Shown here: positions 8,936 to 48,080 of the stretch, piece by piece | How positions within the stretch are numbered: position 1 is the stretch's first letter | Layout: each line of letters starts with the position of its first letter | Source: Shigella phage ESh19 | Direction: 5' to 3' (one strand) | Length of the DNA: 64,000 nucleotides | Sequence record: ON528729 | Notes under the pieces: model-generated | Databases searched by the model: none | What the model saw: the letters and a program-made list of their open reading frames with translations, nothing else | Told to the model about the DNA's origin: nothing | Position numbers and translations under genes: made by a program

Positions 8936-8985
8936 TTCAATATCTCTCTTTGTTGTTTAAAATTACTTAGTGGTTCGTATTCTAA

Positions 8986-9001
8986 GGGGCTTTTCAGCCC
9001 C
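8986..9001 (-). other. GNRA-tetraloop hairpin (GGGGCU-GAAA-AGCCCC on minus transcript) between rIIA and rIIB
   Basis: identical 16-mer recurs at 13847-13862; no U-run follows. Confidence 0.5.
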
Positions 9002-9014
9002 TGTCAAACTATTT

Positions 9015-17757: not shown

Positions 17758-17821
17758 AATTATTGCTCCAATAAAAAAGGTGATGTAAGCCTATCAAGAC
17801 CTACACCACCTTGTCAACTAC

Positions 17822-28195: not shown

Positions 28196-28280
28196 TTTAA
28201 TACCTCTTTCTCAAATTAACTTTTAACTCAACTATCAAGGAGTACAATCTTACAGACTTCGTACTCCCTTGTCAAATACT

Positions 28281-31653: not shown

Positions 31654-32448
31654 TTATTGTAGTTGAGAACCAGTGAGTTCACGCTCAGACATTGCTTCTA
31701 GCTGCTGAACAAACTCTTCACCGAAGTTGATTGCAATCTTGGTGCTAAGGACTGCTGCACCAGTTTGGCTAAATACATCCCCTAGTGCTGCTGTATGAGC
31801 ACCTTGTGAAATGCTCTCTACAAAGCTTGGGTCAGACTCTAACATTTTTGACACTTCAAGTAAAGCATGAATACCCATGATACTAAAGATAGCGTTTAAC
31901 AGTGAAGTTACCTTAACCTGAATAGGGTCTAAAGAGAGACCATTAGTAATCTCTGACAGCTTATTCATTGTCTCATCAGCGTACTGAATTGCCTTGTCAG
32001 AGACTTCATCAAAGCCCCAATCCAGTTTTGCATAACGTGGTGACTTATCATTCATACGCTTCTCTAGCGATGCCATTACAGCAGCAACTGGTGTACAAAT
32101 ACCTTTCAGAAGGTCTTCATCACTCATGTTATCAAGCTCTTTAATACCCTTCTCAGTAATCTGGATGTATCCACCTGAATACATTTCATCAAAGATGTAT
32201 GTTGCAAAGGCATCAACACCAATGAGGATGGTTTTCAGAGCATCAGTCTTATTAGCCAGCAGGTATTCAACCTCTTTACGGAAATCTTCGTCATTCTCTA
32301 CAGCGTTTTCTACAACACGCAGAGATTCAGGGATAAATTTTCCTGACAGTGAGTTGCTACGCATAATGATAGCAAGAGTCTCAACAGTGTTCAGCATGAA
32401 TGCTTCGTCAATACCTTTTTCTTCCAGAATCTCATTTACAGTTTTCAT
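31654..32448 (-). CDS. hypothetical protein (264 aa)
   Basis: ORF. Confidence 0.5.
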   Translation of the reverse strand: MKTVNEILEEKGIDEAFMLNTVETLAIIMRSNSLSGKFIPESLRVVENAVENDEDFRKEVEYLLANKTDALKTILIGVDAFATYIFDEMYSGGYIQITEKGIKELDNMSDEDLLKGICTPVAAVMASLEKRMNDKSPRYAKLDWGFDEVSDKAIQYADETMNKLSEITNGLSLDPIQVKVTSLLNAIFSIMGIHALLEVSKMLESDPSFVESISQGAHTAALGDVFSQTGAAVLSTKIAINFGEEFVQQLEAMSERELTGSQLQ

Positions 32449-32872
32449 CTTTAATCTCTCTCATTTTGTTAATAGTAAGTCGTGATAATCTTAAGCTTTC
32501 TTGTGAAGAGAAGTCAAGTCCTTTTTCAGACCGTGGGAAGTAATTTCTGTCCCAAGTATTCTCTGCATCCTGAAGCAGTTGGGATAGACTATCTAAGTCC
32601 GTTCCATTTTGCAACTTATTTTTTAAGGTATCTATCAAAAAGATTGTGTCTTTCGCTTTACGTCTTTCTGAAGATATCTCTTTCATGTGCTCAAATACCG
32701 AGCACTTTAAACCTTCGTCATATCCACTTGATAGTTCTATCTCATGCTGAACATCAACCATTCGACGATGTTGATAAGCATACTCCTTCTGAGCCTCAAT
32801 GTAAAGTGCTTCAACTTTTTCTAAAGCTTGGACAAGGTTATTGATATCTGGGTGAACGTACATCCTCTGCAT
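32432..32872 (-). CDS. hypothetical protein (146 aa)
   Basis: first gene of minus operon facing divergent region. Confidence 0.5.
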   Translation of the reverse strand: MQRMYVHPDINNLVQALEKVEALYIEAQKEYAYQHRRMVDVQHEIELSSGYDEGLKCSVFEHMKEISSERRKAKDTIFLIDTLKNKLQNGTDLDSLSQLLQDAENTWDRNYFPRSEKGLDFSSQESLRLSRLTINKMREIKDENCK

Positions 32873-33131
32873 GATTGCCTCTGTTAAGTATCTATAAAGA
32901 TTTTAATCTCTTATCTTTATGTATGTTATACATATAACTTTAAAGATTTTTAAAAGCTATTAAAAATCTTTTAAGACTTTTAAAGAAACTGTATAGTTAA
33001 TCTATAAAGGGAGTCTATTAAGATAAAACCCACTTCGAAAAGACTAACACCTTGTCAAGTAGTTTGTCAACTTGCTTTTTGAAGAAAATTGCTGTAGGGT
33101 ATTATCCAGAATGATTTGAGAGGGAGTAAAA
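32873..33131. promoter_or_regulatory. AT-rich divergent intergenic control region
   Basis: between divergent operons; repeated TWTAAAGA boxes, palindrome GTTATA-CA-TATAAC (32925-32938), tandem TTGTCAA (33051-33070), TTTGAA-N16-TATTAT upstream of DNA polymerase. Confidence 0.45.
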
Positions 33132-35831
33132 ATGGACAATGTAGATTTCGAAAAATTACATTTGGTTGGTGATACAGAAACTGATGGGTTGCTCCTTGAG
33201 TTTACAAAAGCACACGTAATGGCTTTCGCAGACTATAAAGATGACAGTGATGAACCTGCTGTGTGGGTTTTCACTGATGAGCCTATTCTTGGTCACAAGT
33301 ACACAAAATACATCAAAGGTGGTCTGCGTGAAGGTGTTGAGTTTGCACTGAAAGCTAAACGTCTTTGCATACATAATGGTTTAGGTTATGACTGGTGGGT
33401 GTTTAATCACATTGCACCTGACCTGTGGAACTTTGAGAATCCTAAGTGCAAGCCTTGGAGTGACTTCTTTCAGGATTCACTTATCCAATCTCGCGTACAG
33501 TGGATGGATAGACCTACACCAAAAGGTTACAAAGGTGCTCATGGTTTGGCTGCATGGGGTGCTCGTGTTGGTGTTCGTAAACCAGAGATTGAAGAGTGGG
33601 GTGTCTGGAATGCAGAGATTCTTACTCGTGTTGTAGAAGATATTAAGATTAACGCCAAAACTAAACGTGCTCTTGATAATGAGTACCTCAAGCTTAAGAA
33701 GTGTGGTGTTGACACTTATGAAACCTACATGCGAGCTAAAGAAACATCTTTCTGGATGAGTCAGCAAGCTATCAACGGTTGGAAAGCTGATGTAGAACTT
33801 ATGCAGTTCCACGTTAAAGAGCTTGACAAGTTAACTAATGAGTTGGCTGCTGAGGTTGAACCACACCTTCCACCAACTATTAAGACAAAAGGTAAAGTCA
33901 CAGGTGAAGAATTTGCCAAGTCTTGGAATGAGTATGTAGATACATTTGGTCACGTTGACGGTTTAAAAAGGATTACCAAGTACCCTAAGACAAAGTATCG
34001 TGAACAGATGCGTGAAGGTGAGTTGAAGCAGTACCCTATCAAGCCATATGGTAAGCCAACCACAAAGATTTTTAATGTTGAGAAACGCAACTGCTACACT
34101 CCAACTAACACGGTCACAAAAGAAGAGTACCCTGAAGGTTTTGTAGCAATGAAAGATGCTCGTGCAGTTTGTAATGAACTGAATGAGAAGATTGGCAAGA
34201 AGTGTAAAGATTGGAAGCCAGTTAAGACTGTGAAAACTGTGAAGTACTACAACGTTCACGTTGTTAATCACTTTGAGTTAGAGTCTAGTCGCTACACTGG
34301 TTTGATTGATGCACCATTCACACCAATTGAGTTTGAAGTTTCACGAATGACTCAGGTAGCTGTGGTGAAGGATTACTTAAAATCCGTTGGCTGGATTCCT
34401 GATGATTGGAACTATAAAAAAGATTCTGACGGTCGTCCTATCAAGGTTTGCAGGTTCAAAGACAACAAAAAGATGATTCGCAAACATCCTAAGTGGGATG
34501 AGATGGTTGAACGTTGTGGGTTGAACTATATTGAGCATGAAGGTGTCTACTACATCGAGCATAACTGGTCTGTTAAGAAGTACACAGATGTGCTTGAGCC
34601 TTGCTTGATTAGGACTTCACCAAAGCTTACAGAATCTTCTTATGATACAATCGAAGGTGAGCTTGGACAGAAGATTGCGAAGTACTATACTTTGATGCAC
34701 CGACGCAGGACTATCGAGAACTCAAAGGATGATGAGAAAGGTTGGCTGAACCAGATTCGTCCAGATGGTCGTTTGAGTGCAGGTGCAATGGTGTTTGGTA
34801 CTTCTACTGGACGTATGACTCAGTATGGTATTGTGAACGTACCTTCTGGTGCTGCTGTGTACGGTGAGCCAATGAGGGCAGTGTGGATTTGTGAAGAGGG
34901 AACCAACGTAGTATCTGTTGATATGAACTCTGCACAGCTTGTACTACTCTGTAACTTCATGGGTGATAAAGATTTCACCAAAGCGGTAACAGAGGGTAAA
35001 GAAGAGATTGAGTTTGTTCGTCAAGAGGATGGAAGATACTACTGTAAACACTTTGACCAGTATCTGAATCCAGAGATTGACAAGTATCTGCGTTACGACT
35101 CTGAAAACGATTTGTACGTAGTTTACTCAGGGACTGATGCTCATACCCTGAACAGTATCTACTTCAGCCTTAATGATGAGCAAGATATCTTGACTTGTCG
35201 TGCTACTCAGGATGAGAATCTTCTTCATGAGATTAGCAAGGGACGTAAGAAAGCTAAGAATGGTATCTATGCCCTGTTGTTCGGTGCAGGTGATGAGAAG
35301 TTTGCTAAAACAATTAAAGCAGCAACTACTCAGGAAGGTGCATTGACTAAGCAGACTTACTTTGTGCGTTTACCGAAGATTAAGAAACTGTTAGACAACT
35401 TGGAAGCTGATTTCAAAGCAACTAAGAAAGCACTTGAAGAGGTGTTTGGTAAGACTGCTGCAATAGCTAAAGGTGGATTTGTTCAGGTTGCTGGGGCGTG
35501 GTTGTGGTGTAAATCTCCACACAAACTCTTGAACTATCTGTTGATGGGTTCAGAAGCACAAGTTCAGAATGAAGCAATCAACCTTGCTTGTCGTCGTATG
35601 ATTGATGAAGGTTTGATGAAACTAAATGGTCGTAAGCCAGCTATCGGTGCTCGTTTACTTTGTGCTTACCACGACGAAACAAGCTGGGAATGCCCAGAAA
35701 GCATGACAGCAGAAGTTAAGGCAGTAACTGACTGGTATTATGGTCAAGCTTCTAAAAACTTGGGACTGAAGAAGGATACTTTGGTAACGGGTACTGGTAA
35801 GGTTGGTAAATCGTGGCTTGAAGTCCACTAA
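33132..35831 (+). CDS. DNA polymerase, family A, with 3'-5' exonuclease domain
   Basis: Exo I DTETDG near N-terminus; Pol A motif C LLCAYHDETSWE; 899 aa; SD GAGGGAG. Confidence 0.85.
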   Translation: MDNVDFEKLHLVGDTETDGLLLEFTKAHVMAFADYKDDSDEPAVWVFTDEPILGHKYTKYIKGGLREGVEFALKAKRLCIHNGLGYDWWVFNHIAPDLWNFENPKCKPWSDFFQDSLIQSRVQWMDRPTPKGYKGAHGLAAWGARVGVRKPEIEEWGVWNAEILTRVVEDIKINAKTKRALDNEYLKLKKCGVDTYETYMRAKETSFWMSQQAINGWKADVELMQFHVKELDKLTNELAAEVEPHLPPTIKTKGKVTGEEFAKSWNEYVDTFGHVDGLKRITKYPKTKYREQMREGELKQYPIKPYGKPTTKIFNVEKRNCYTPTNTVTKEEYPEGFVAMKDARAVCNELNEKIGKKCKDWKPVKTVKTVKYYNVHVVNHFELESSRYTGLIDAPFTPIEFEVSRMTQVAVVKDYLKSVGWIPDDWNYKKDSDGRPIKVCRFKDNKKMIRKHPKWDEMVERCGLNYIEHEGVYYIEHNWSVKKYTDVLEPCLIRTSPKLTESSYDTIEGELGQKIAKYYTLMHRRRTIENSKDDEKGWLNQIRPDGRLSAGAMVFGTSTGRMTQYGIVNVPSGAAVYGEPMRAVWICEEGTNVVSVDMNSAQLVLLCNFMGDKDFTKAVTEGKEEIEFVRQEDGRYYCKHFDQYLNPEIDKYLRYDSENDLYVVYSGTDAHTLNSIYFSLNDEQDILTCRATQDENLLHEISKGRKKAKNGIYALLFGAGDEKFAKTIKAATTQEGALTKQTYFVRLPKIKKLLDNLEADFKATKKALEEVFGKTAAIAKGGFVQVAGAWLWCKSPHKLLNYLLMGSEAQVQNEAINLACRRMIDEGLMKLNGRKPAIGARLLCAYHDETSWECPESMTAEVKAVTDWYYGQASKNLGLKKDTLVTGTGKVGKSWLEVH

Positions 35832-35892
35832 TAGTGTTGACAAGGTGCTCATGGAAGAGTACCTTATACTATATATTATATAGGAGACTTGT

Positions 35893-36093
35893 ATGACTAT
35901 TTCAGAAATTGAAGTTCAACTGCAATGTGCTGGATATTCTCAAAGTGAGATTGAGGCTATGTGCATCATCATTTGCAGTAGCCATAAGCACCTCAAGCTT
36001 TCTAATGAAAATCTTAGCAAGGTTGATATTTTTATTGCTGGAGGTAAGATTATCAAGGATAAGACAGGATACCTTAAAGGTGAACGTCTATGA
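35893..36093 (+). CDS. hypothetical protein (66 aa)
   Basis: ORF with AGGAGA SD. Confidence 0.45.
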   Translation: MTISEIEVQLQCAGYSQSEIEAMCIIICSSHKHLKLSNENLSKVDIFIAGGKIIKDKTGYLKGERL

Positions 36094-38590: not shown

Positions 38591-38595
38591 AATTG

Positions 38596-38656
38596 TTGAC
38601 ATGAGTAACCTGACGGGTATACTACCTATATAGAAAATTATATAGGAACCCGTCAG
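38596..38656 (+). promoter_or_regulatory. sigma70-type promoter with nested inverted repeats (operator-like)
   Basis: TTGACA(38596-38601)-N16-TATACT(38618-38623); outer IR CTGACGGGT/ACCCGTCAG (38610-38618, 38648-38656), inner palindrome CCTATATA/TATATAGG. Confidence 0.5.
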
Positions 38657-38673
38657 AAACCTCGGAGGTGTTT

Positions 38674-39056: not shown

Positions 39057-39260
39057 ATGAAGAAGAACATCTGTAGAACAGACTATGGTGAAGTGGTCGA
39101 TGATGACGGAGTAGTTATTTACAGAGTTTGGGCTAATGATTTTGCAACCGTTGTAGAGTCTTTAGATAACTACATCAATGGGACTCGTGAAAACGTCAGA
39201 GCAACTAATCTTGATTCGTTAATAGACACTTCTCGAAAACGGAGAAAGAAAGATGAATGA
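39057..39260 (+). CDS. hypothetical protein (67 aa)
   Basis: ORF. Confidence 0.4.
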   Translation: MKKNICRTDYGEVVDDDGVVIYRVWANDFATVVESLDNYINGTRENVRATNLDSLIDTSRKRRKKDE

Positions 39261-39552
39261 AGTCTTTGACCCATATGCACCTCAAGATTCTTGGGAGGCT
39301 GATAGAGAGGCTGAAATGGAGAGTTATGTCTGTCCAATGGATATAGAAGAGATGAAAGACTTTGTATCTTTCAGATTCTCTAAAGAGATTGAGAAGCTAA
39401 AACTTTCTCAGGCTCAAGTAGCAACTGTTTGTGAAATCTCACAGAGTCGTGTGTCAAATATCATTAACGACCCTCAAAAGATTTCTTTAGAGTACATGCT
39501 TAATGCTTGTACAAAACTTGGTGTAAATTTTAACTTAAGGCTGGCAGATTAA
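39253..39552 (+). CDS. putative HTH DNA-binding protein (99 aa)
   Basis: LSQAQVATVCEISQSRVSNIIN resembles XRE-type helix-turn-helix. Confidence 0.4.
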   Translation: MNEVFDPYAPQDSWEADREAEMESYVCPMDIEEMKDFVSFRFSKEIEKLKLSQAQVATVCEISQSRVSNIINDPQKISLEYMLNACTKLGVNFNLRLAD

Positions 39553-47221: not shown

Positions 47222-48078
47222 TATGAACTTCCTTCTTGTTGAGATTTATCTTTTCTGCCTTTGACGATTTGGGCGACTTCTGCCATAATCCCATAATCAC
47301 CACCTGCTACTGTTTCTTTACCAGCAATGAAATAGTCGTTGCTATTGTTTGTTTTGCTGACTTTTAAATAATCTTTACTGGTACTTCCACCAGTTTTATC
47401 CACTCTTACATAACCATCTCTTACACCTGCATCTGCAAAACTACCTAATTTGTTTGCTTCTAGAGAGCCACCTGTGTTATTCGTAATAAGACCCTTGTTA
47501 GTGTTTGTTACAAACCAGTTATTGTTCTCATCAGTGATTGCCAGAGATGAATCAGCAACCTCTACAGGAGTCCAAGCAGTACCATTTAAGGTAACATCTC
47601 TAAGGATAACTGCCGAACCAATAGTTGTTGCAGCAATCTTAGAAAGTGTGTATGCTGTATCTAACACGTTATTACGAGTGTTTACACGGACAACGATTCC
47701 ACCAGTCATTGGTGTAATGTGCTCAAAAATCTGACTGAATGATGCGTTGTAAAGGGTCATAACAGCCCTTTGTAAGAAGTTTGGTGTGGTGTCAGAACGT
47801 CTTAAGAAAATTTGAATGTAGAGGATAGCTCTGTAAGTGTCATCATCAGCACCAATAGGTCTAGGGACTTTAATCAAAGCCCCAATGTTATCAAGTTGTG
47901 TGCCAACACCTACACGAATATTTCTTTCAGTATATAACTGGTTACTGATATCCTCTAATAATTGTAACTCATCTGTGATAGATTTCAATAGACTTGTGTA
48001 AATAAACTTATCTTTGAATTGAGTTACAGTTCTTTCGTCCAATGTTTTCTCATAAAAGTTTTCAATCTTTTTAAACAT
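47221..48078 (-). CDS. baseplate protein (P2 gpI-like by synteny)
   Basis: follows J-like gene; start set to ATG 48078 with AAGGAG SD. Confidence 0.45.
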
Positions 48079-48080
48079 TG

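Follow-up and report, generated by a model that had tools for sequence, protein, structure and literature searches.

The control region that separates the two divergent replication operons of Shigella phage ESh19 (sequence record ON528729) is read here as a pair of back-to-back early σ70 promoters accompanied by an array of short boxes that would bind a sequence-specific protein modulating leftward transcription. We put the probability of this reading at about one half; the argument draws on sequence features, on their enrichment and conservation, and on the recurrence of paralogous copies elsewhere in the genome. The region occupies positions 32873-33131 (259 bp, 27.4% GC) of a 64,000-nucleotide stretch, hereafter the window, belonging to a Felix O1-like myophage (Ounavirinae, Mooglevirus). 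Coordinates refer to the window unless stated otherwise, and the control region, palindromes, dyads and blocks are given without strand. Shigella phages ESh20 and Sf15 share 99% identity with the query region.

According to the proposed mechanism, a leftward promoter composed of an A-tract, a -35 hexamer (33070-33065), an 18-bp spacer, a TG extension and a -10 hexamer (33046-33041), with a predicted start near 33034, would drive the operon encoding a 146-amino acid (aa) protein, a dNMP kinase and a primase-helicase. The first ~160 bp to be transcribed would form an extremely AT-rich leader carrying eight CTnTWAAG boxes in a single orientation. These boxes are most probably the sites of a sequence-specific DNA-binding protein, of phage or host origin, which would act on start-proximal DNA and modulate leftward transcription by roadblock or shut-off. 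A weak candidate, TTGCTT-N17-TAGGGT, abutting the leftward -35, may serve the DNA polymerase gene, and the balance between the two promoters could shift indirectly, since the polymerase footprints would overlap. The same protein may act at two other leftward promoters, where the promoter-plus-box module recurs; for this reason the boxes would define a small regulon.

Conservation of the control region

The region is homologous to the gap between genes 96 and 97 of phage Felix O1, for which divergent promoters were assumed and no recognizable promoter was reported (Whichard et al. 2010, PMC3185647). Genes on either side of that gap were found by reverse transcription PCR to be expressed within 5 min, and the temporal regulation of Felix O1 was stated to be unknown (PMC3185647). 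The notion of a divergent control region is already assumed in the literature; new here are the assignment of the promoters, the re-definition of the box and its conservation, and a module present in three copies together with its link to the Felix O1 promoter P41.

Homologues of the gap occur in about 300 records (at least 258) of phages infecting Escherichia, Salmonella, Shigella, Citrobacter, Erwinia and Pectobacterium. The mean column identity of the gap is 90% in an alignment of eight genomes of Mooglevirus, Suspvirus and Felixounavirus, to which the counts of genomes given below refer. Compared with Felixounavirus, the gap is 80% identical and its core about 85%, against 58-68% for the third codon positions of the flanking genes. 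Since the identity of the gap exceeds that of these positions, its non-coding DNA is under purifying selection. The only open reading frames (ORFs) inside the gap are three chance-like ones of 20-31 aa, and no small ORF is conserved. The original prediction of an AT-rich 259-bp gap between a minus-strand operon and the DNA polymerase gene is accurate in size, place and composition, and alignment and conservation support its view of a conserved control region between two divergent replication operons.

The predicted leftward promoter

Two tandem TTGTCAA elements had been proposed to precede a polymerase promoter. Both are present, at 33052 and 33064, where gap shuffles lead one to expect 0.04, but their role is a different one: TTGTCAA is the reverse complement of TTGACAA, and the pair supplies TTGACA -35 hexamers on the minus strand. 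A simple σ70 position weight matrix (PWM) was used to scan the gap, the window and its relatives. The best candidate of the gap, at 12.6 bits, is TTGACA-N18-TAGTCT with an extended TG, in which the second TTGTCAA provides the -35 (33065-33070, minus strand) and the -10 TAGTCT (33046-33041) combines with TG (33049-33048) in a minus-strand element at 33041-33049; TAATCT is the form of the -10 in most relatives. The T-run 33076-33080, together with the TTGCTT at 33072-33077, gives a minus-strand A-tract immediately before the -35 that could be a UP-like element. An invariant block, AAAACCCACTTCG (33025-33037), surrounds the predicted start at ~33034 and is common to the paralogous module B described below.

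The score of this promoter is level with those of the other promoters of the phage (13-15 bits), and it matches their usual form in other intergenic regions of the window, TTGACA-N17/18-TAnnnT, frequently with a hairpin in the spacer. The same element ranks top in six of seven close relatives scanned (12.6-12.7 bits). Its equivalent in the Pectobacterium phage Arno162, TTGACA-N17-TAGGCT, is also top at 14.5 bits, and that of the Erwinia phage phiEa21-4 (Kolesnikvirus), TTGACA-N17-TACATT, reaches 13.8 bits, second to a 14.2-bit gene-proximal promoter. The survey was extended to 30 viral-contig loci encoding the family of the 146-aa protein, corresponding to 23 distinct upstream sequences. The leftward promoter is the best one on the strand of the gene in 22 of these 23. 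In the 21 sequences from closer genera its position relative to the ATG is -196 to -198 and the leader has 160-162 nt and 22-29% GC; in one Kolesnikvirus the position is -179 and the leader is 144 nt long. In 22 of 23 sequences the boxes, four to seven in each, are all found downstream of the leftward -10; the exception is phiEa21-4's own locus, where the gene-proximal promoter scores slightly higher. It is this conservation, not the score, that gives the leftward promoter its weight.

The second TTGACA (33053-33058, minus strand), corresponding to the first TTGTCAA, is located in the leftward spacer and centered on an invariant palindrome, CTTGTCAAG. This palindrome may be an operator, representing a second kind of site. 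As a promoter of its own, the second TTGACA was rejected since no -10 is found at N16-19 (AAGTGG), and TTGTCA was rejected as a rightward -35 for lack of a -10 at the right distance. The pair does not resemble a terminator either: its hairpin is no better than random (-2.2 kcal/mol, z = -0.05) and a terminator scan was negative. A search of the gap against Rfam returned only a sub-threshold snoRNA match.

The box array

At least four TWTAAAGA boxes in both orientations had been described in the gap. Exact copies number three, all on the plus strand (32893, 32939 and 32979), and their final A is not conserved. Four or more boxes on both strands are obtained only when one mismatch is allowed, which yields 13 matches in the gap; the quasi-palindromic character of the box makes it seem present on both strands. 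The three exact copies compare with 0.23 expected in gap-matched shuffles (P = 0.002), and the motif is not enriched over the whole window (16 copies, a number attained in 7 of 100 shuffles, for an expectation of 10.5).

CTnTWAAG fits better as the repeat unit. Eight units, all in the plus orientation, are present in the gap: u1, CTGTTAAG (32881-32888), which overlaps the ribosome binding site (RBS) of the leftward gene; u2, CTATAAAG (32892-32899); u3, CTTTAAAG (32938-32945), a perfect palindrome that has no strand of its own; u4, CTTTTAAG (32968-32975); u5, the 9-bp variant CTTTTAAAG (32977-32985), of which only TTTTAAAG is invariant; u6, the variant CTGTATAG (32989-32996), invariant in the eight genomes; u7, again CTATAAAG (33002-33009); and u8, CTATTAAG (33015-33022). 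The consensus has seven matches at six positions against 0.36 expected, and none of 1000 dinucleotide-matched shuffles of the gap reaches seven. When 5,926 gapped 8-mers were enumerated without bias, CTNTNAAG came first, with six observed and 0.41 expected (P = 4.5e-6, about 0.03 after Bonferroni correction). The gap holds six boxes per 160 bp, a density that never exceeds two elsewhere in the window. By both approaches, the density of boxes is above a composition-matched background, so that the lack of enrichment that would have told against the original prediction is not observed.

The array is also conserved. The C, T, T, A, A and G of the core CT-T--AAG are unchanged in six units across the eight genomes, substitutions being confined to positions 3 and 5 and to the spacers between units, and the boxes sit at the same places in Mooglevirus, Suspvirus and Felixounavirus. 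Related units (CTGTAAAG, CTGTTAAG, CTTTAAAG and CTGTTAAAAG) stand in the same place in phiEa21-4 and Arno162. The consensus is CTnTTAAG in Felixounavirus and CTnTWAAG in Mooglevirus, and it resembles CTGTTAAG in Kolesnikvirus and Arno162. Such data bear on the possibility that no specific factor is involved, the box being a by-product of composition and duplication in a region selected for AT-rich, curved or easily melted DNA, of the UP-like or H-NS/Fis type. The extreme AT content, the A/T-rich and quasi-palindromic nature of the box and its irregular spacing (10-46 bp, with some direct repeats 10-13 bp apart) would agree with this explanation. It is nonetheless made very improbable by the shuffles cited above, by the invariance of the G/C positions of the box while its A/T positions drift, by the fixed location of the boxes across three genera and by their enrichment at three further non-coding loci, whose GC content is higher. 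Motifs of IHF, Fis, Lrp, PhoB and MotA were rejected, since neither sequence nor spacing agrees with them.

Relative to the leftward start every box is downstream; relative to the candidate polymerase promoter every box is upstream, by at least 85 bp. With this placement, the control of both directions by a single regulator, as originally proposed, is not indicated, and leftward control is the natural reading.

The candidate rightward promoter

The polymerase promoter of the original prediction, TTTGAA-N16-TATTAT, does exist at 33078-33083 and 33100-33105 but falls in the most variable stretch of the gap (33073-33112, 55-65% variable columns) and is not conserved: TATTAT becomes TATTAG, TATTAA, TATTGA or TATGTG in relatives, with loss of the essential final T, and TTTGAA varies as well. 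A more conserved candidate is formed by an invariant -35, TTGCTT (33072-33077, plus strand), and a -10, TAGGGT (33095-33100, plus strand), kept as TAnnGT in all eight genomes. This TTGCTT-N17-TAGGGT element is weak (7.0-7.7 bits), and its N17 spacer is fixed in length and variable in sequence. The back-to-back equivalent in Arno162, TTGACC-N17-CATACT, is stronger (11.8 bits). As the two -35 hexamers are 1 bp apart and the predicted starts ~73 bp apart, the two polymerase footprints would overlap, and competition between them may be envisaged.

The TGCTT of this -35 evokes the MotA box of phage T4, (a/t)3TGCTTtA, which sits 11-13 bp upstream of the -10. The match at 33073-33077 was rejected since 17 bp separate it from the candidate -10, as is normal for a -35. 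No factors of the MotA/AsiA type have been reported for Felix O1 (PMC3185647).

The full model of the original prediction, a shared operator of TWTAAAGA boxes in two orientations and a TTTGAA-N16-TATTAT polymerase promoter preceded by TTGTCAA repeats, can be weighed at this point. It is right in that boxes are enriched over a composition-matched background in a divergent and conserved region. However, its box occurs three times on one strand with a drifting terminal A, its TATTAT and TTTGAA vary, its TTGTCAA pair reads as a leftward TTGACA promoter kept in orthologues and paralogues, and the boxes stand at least 85 bp upstream of any polymerase promoter. We find this model hard to maintain and assign it a low probability.

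The polymerase gene itself encodes a family-A enzyme (DNA_pol_A; 33132-35831, plus strand), is preceded by an invariant RBS, GAGGGAG (33120-33126, plus strand), and is the first gene of the rightward operon, in which a DNA ligase gene comes after it. Genes for HNH homing endonucleases come and go in its vicinity: one directly follows the polymerase gene in ESh20, where the window has a 77-bp promoter-bearing gap (35832-35908), and another is inserted between the control region and the polymerase gene in phiEa21-4.

The AT-rich trough: a possible replication origin or RNA leader

The least stable duplex of the window lies within the array, at 32884-32983: with 16% GC over 100 bp it is the lowest in the 64 kb, and its nearest-neighbor stability is ~+5 standard deviations (SD) from the window mean. 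Its equivalent is the lowest-GC 100 bp (16-17%) of the whole 89.5-kb ESh20 genome. Several symmetrical sequences are found there. The 6-2-6 palindrome GTTATA-CA-TATAAC pointed out originally is real (GTTATACATATAAC, 32925-32938) but restricted to the window and Moogle. It overlaps a 7-3-7 palindrome, TATGTAT-GTT-ATACATA (32918-32934), which in other genera reads TACGTAT-TCT-ATACGTA, a compensatory change from T:A to C:G (32920/32932) having preserved it. In three lineages the DNA hairpin of this 7-3-7 palindrome has z-scores of -2.5 to -3.7. A central dyad, at the core of the trough, joins u3 and u4 (32938-32975) with 12-bp arms, AAAGATTTTTAA and TTAAAAATCTTT, that are perfect in the window and less so in other genera; its DNA fold in the window reaches -9.5 kcal/mol (z = -5.4).

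The primary origin of phage T7 comprises the tandem promoters φ1.1A/B and an AT-rich region, and the oriF and oriG origins of T4 a middle promoter and a downstream unwinding element. A transcription-primed replication origin of this type, with or without iteron-like boxes, is the main rival of the promoter-operator reading, with which it could coexist. An R-loop formed by the leftward transcript would prime the T7-like polymerase and allow a gp4-like primase-helicase to load, while the boxes would be the target of an accessory or initiator protein. The gap resembles these origins in having tandem -35 hexamers and a promoter directly before the least stable 100 bp of the genome, and the trough is better explained in this way. 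The direct repeats 10-13 bp apart, the conserved palindromes and the location of the site between the polymerase operon and the primase-helicase operon also agree with an origin, as does the T7-like composition of the replisome encoded next to it (DNA_pol_A; Toprim and DnaB_C primase-helicase; PMC3185647). The sequence anatomy of a transcription-primed origin, a promoter followed by an AT-rich element with a T7-like polymerase and primase-helicase, is present. The change of sign of the GC skew at the gap might be added to this evidence but is uninformative because it coincides with the switch of coding strand.

Other observations make an origin unlikely, if worth retaining. The module and its boxes are not unique, being found in two paralogous modules and in a 1.5-kb non-coding region that is at least as good a candidate for an origin or terminus. 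No initiator-like protein adjoins the gap, and no Rep-like family was recognized among 51 ORFs of the window scanned against Pfam or among eight flanking proteins of the replication region. No DnaA box is conserved, the only near-match, TTATCCAGA (33102-33110; 8 of 9 positions of the consensus TTATCCACA), being absent from relatives. Unlike the T7 origin, the site would employ the host polymerase and not a phage RNA polymerase, and only one of its two hexamers, 12 bp apart, has a -10; neither T7 nor T4 origins have a counterpart of the box array. The likeness to iteron origins (λ ori, P1, plasmid iterons) consists in direct repeats beside an AT-rich stretch near replication genes. In contrast with these, the repeats are of 8 bp instead of 17-22 bp, irregularly spaced and distributed over four loci, so that the array is not specific to an origin, and no initiator gene was found next to it.

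A further possibility is that the boxes operate in RNA, as CUUWAnAG units of a ~160-nt AU-rich leader, structured or protein-binding, that would control the translation or stability of the first gene. It would account for the position of all boxes within the predicted leader (except at phiEa21-4's own locus), for the constant leader length of 160-162 nt in closer genera and for the hairpin at 32918-32934, which retains pairing through one compensatory change. The RNA fold, on the other hand, is no better than that of shuffled sequences (z = -1.2), the covariation term amounts to -0.08 kcal/mol, the predicted pairs just mirror the quasi-palindromic boxes and no Rfam family matches. Boxes also abound in the 1.5-kb non-coding convergent region, where a leader role is not evident. 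A role in RNA consequently appears quite improbable.

Paralogous modules in the genome

The whole 89.5-kb genome of ESh20 was searched for similar modules; over the 1.2 kb around the gap this genome and the window share 99% identity. The exact motif TGTCAA-N6/7-TGTCAA occurs there only three times, in the polymerase gap, at ~426 and at ~78320, each time in an intergenic region and with CTnTWAAG boxes on the same side, between the tandem element and the minus-strand gene. Read on the minus strand, the three copies share the order A-tract, TTGACA, N6-7, TTGACAAG, N2-3, TA(G/A)nCT. The two paralogues, outside the window (ESh20 340-470 and ~78190-78350, minus strand), thus consist of boxes and a tandem-TTGACA leftward promoter, and boxes are enriched there as well (module B, 2 observed against 0.13 expected; module C, 4 against 0.41). 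Between Mooglevirus and Felixounavirus, module C is 93% identical and the core of module B ~95%, the flanks of the latter being divergent.

The copy at 78.3 kb is located in the other divergent junction of the genome and equals P41 of Felix O1. This promoter of the 40-41 gap, published as TTGACA-N15-TATAGG, heads a unit with tRNA and structural genes (PMC3185647). The tandem-TTGACA element of the 96-97 gap is accordingly paralogous to P41, whose -10 is read here as TAGnCT or TAATCT at N17/18 rather than TATAGG at N15; neither the boxes nor the three-copy module were described in that study. The cumulative GC-skew minimum of ESh20 (78210) coincides with this module.

Box-enriched loci of ESh20 other than the polymerase gap are 281-476, 78189-78436 and 86883-88421. 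The last of these, outside the window, is the 1.5-kb non-coding region mentioned above, at a convergent junction, with 14 boxes against 1.8 expected. It also contains runs of ~12-bp CTCTTAACA/CTAACAAG repeats, about five tandem ACTTTTACGTT units and pairs of CTGTATAG, and could correspond to the genome termini, a packaging site or an origin. A terminal repeat of 608 bp has been reported for the relative UAB_Phi87 (PMC4837284).

Candidate proteins and weighing of the evidence

The first gene of the leftward operon (32432-32872, minus strand) encodes the 146-aa protein (phrog_4039) and is followed by genes for a dNMP kinase and a Toprim/DnaB_C-type primase-helicase. Homologue searches confine its family to the Ounavirinae, and it matches no Pfam family and no Protein Data Bank (PDB) sequence. 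Its AlphaFold model (pLDDT 72.6) is a bundle of long helices for which the best Foldseek E-value, 0.14, is not significant. Being all-helical, with no DNA-binding fold found and no Pfam or PDB match, this neighbor was rejected as the reader of the boxes. The 264-aa ORF situated between the 146-aa gene and the dNMP kinase gene (31654-32448, minus strand) is labeled 'minor tail protein' in RefSeq records and in PHROG 4251, a label that looks doubtful and propagated within a replication operon.

The only protein with a Cro/C1-type helix-turn-helix (HTH) among the 51 window ORFs scanned against Pfam is a 99-aa product of the polymerase operon (39253-39552, plus strand; HTH_3, 34.1 bits for a cut-off of 23). 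It surfaced through the batch Pfam scan, local phmmer searches with classical Cro, C2 and SinR sequences having returned nothing, and it has no PDB relative by sequence. A total of 258 records from Mooglevirus, Suspvirus and Felixounavirus contain it; it went undetected in the relatives that infect Erwinia or Pectobacterium. As a speculative reader, it might recognize either the boxes or the palindrome CTTGTCAAG. In several GenBank records it is labeled 'transcriptional regulator' or 'phage repressor', and such a protein is unexpected in a strictly lytic phage.

A number of points weigh against the promoter-operator reading. The Ounavirinae literature searched provided no usable transcription-start, RNA-seq, binding or origin data. 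The PWM score of the leftward promoter is unexceptional, ranking 25th in the window with a ~10% chance of occurrence in 259 bp, and that of the polymerase candidate (7.7 bits) is shared by thousands of window positions. The reader protein was not found: the adjacent 146-aa protein is without a DNA-binding fold, and the sole HTH protein among the ORFs scanned is encoded 6 kb away and goes undetected in two distant lineages that possess box arrays. A typical HTH dimer would be expected to bind a site longer than 8 bp. Finally, a simple operator model has no need for the AT trough, the genome minimum at 16% GC, which suits an origin.

Other repeats and promoters of the window

Five near-identical intergenic cassettes of 84-92 bp separate small early genes (574-657, 1171-1262, 1521-1611, 1993-2076 and 2458-2490). 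Their minus strand has the sequence TTTACA-N17-TAAGAT, within which a GGGGC...GCCCC hairpin is nested; the 57-bp direct repeats already reported in Felix O1 are their counterparts. The 503 bp at 2458-2960 are devoid of called ORFs and include a 41-bp unit, ACCTGCACAAATTGAAAATGAATTTTCCCTTTGGAGTCAAG, repeated 2.9 times in tandem at 2708-2830. Many TTGACA promoters have a GC-rich hairpin in, or overlapping, the -35/-10 spacer and form terminator-promoter composites, for example at 8936-9014, 17758-17821, 28196-28280, 35832-35908 and 38591-38667. TTGACAA is about twofold over-represented on the coding strand throughout the window (41 observed, 21.5 expected). A 298-aa ORF is present at 47222-48080.

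Comparison with known systems and significance

Among known arrangements, back-to-back σ70 promoters with operator arrays, such as lambdoid immunity regions, come close to the organization proposed here: the -35 hexamers face outward 1 bp apart, short repeats lie near a start and an invariant small palindrome, CTTGTCAAG, is placed between -35 and -10. The array differs in being made of 8-bp direct boxes spread over ~140 bp downstream of the start and not of 14-18-bp palindromes overlapping the promoter. Unlike in Cro/CI operator regions, no regulator gene is adjacent, the only HTH_3 gene among the scanned ORFs being 6 kb away. Pho boxes (CTGTCAT-N4-CTGTCAT) and Tor boxes (CTGTTCATAT) are tandem direct repeats of winged-helix response regulators. 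The boxes recall these in being short CTGT-type direct repeats about one helical turn apart, those of Arno162 reading CTGTTAAAAG and CTGTTCAG. Their period of 10-13 bp is irregular, however, their consensus is another one and their position relative to the -10 is wrong for activation by PhoB.

Felix O1-like phages are widely used in Salmonella typing, biocontrol and therapy. The present analysis supplies promoter candidates with coordinates, an 8-bp box with eight conserved positions and a module preceding three transcription units, one of which leads into tRNA and structural genes. The timing of transcription and the start of replication in these phages thereby become directly testable, and the region is best left intact in phage engineering. 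The significance of the site would rise if it turned out to be a replication origin or the hub of a phage-specific regulon. In the most far-reaching version, which we consider doubtful and less probable than an origin as such, the gap would be the main replication origin of Felix O1-like phages and the boxes the sites of a phage protein coupling early transcription, replication initiation and possibly genome-end functions. If this were true, the three leftward promoters and the long terminal non-coding region, each with its array, would together represent an undescribed phage-specific DNA-binding regulon.

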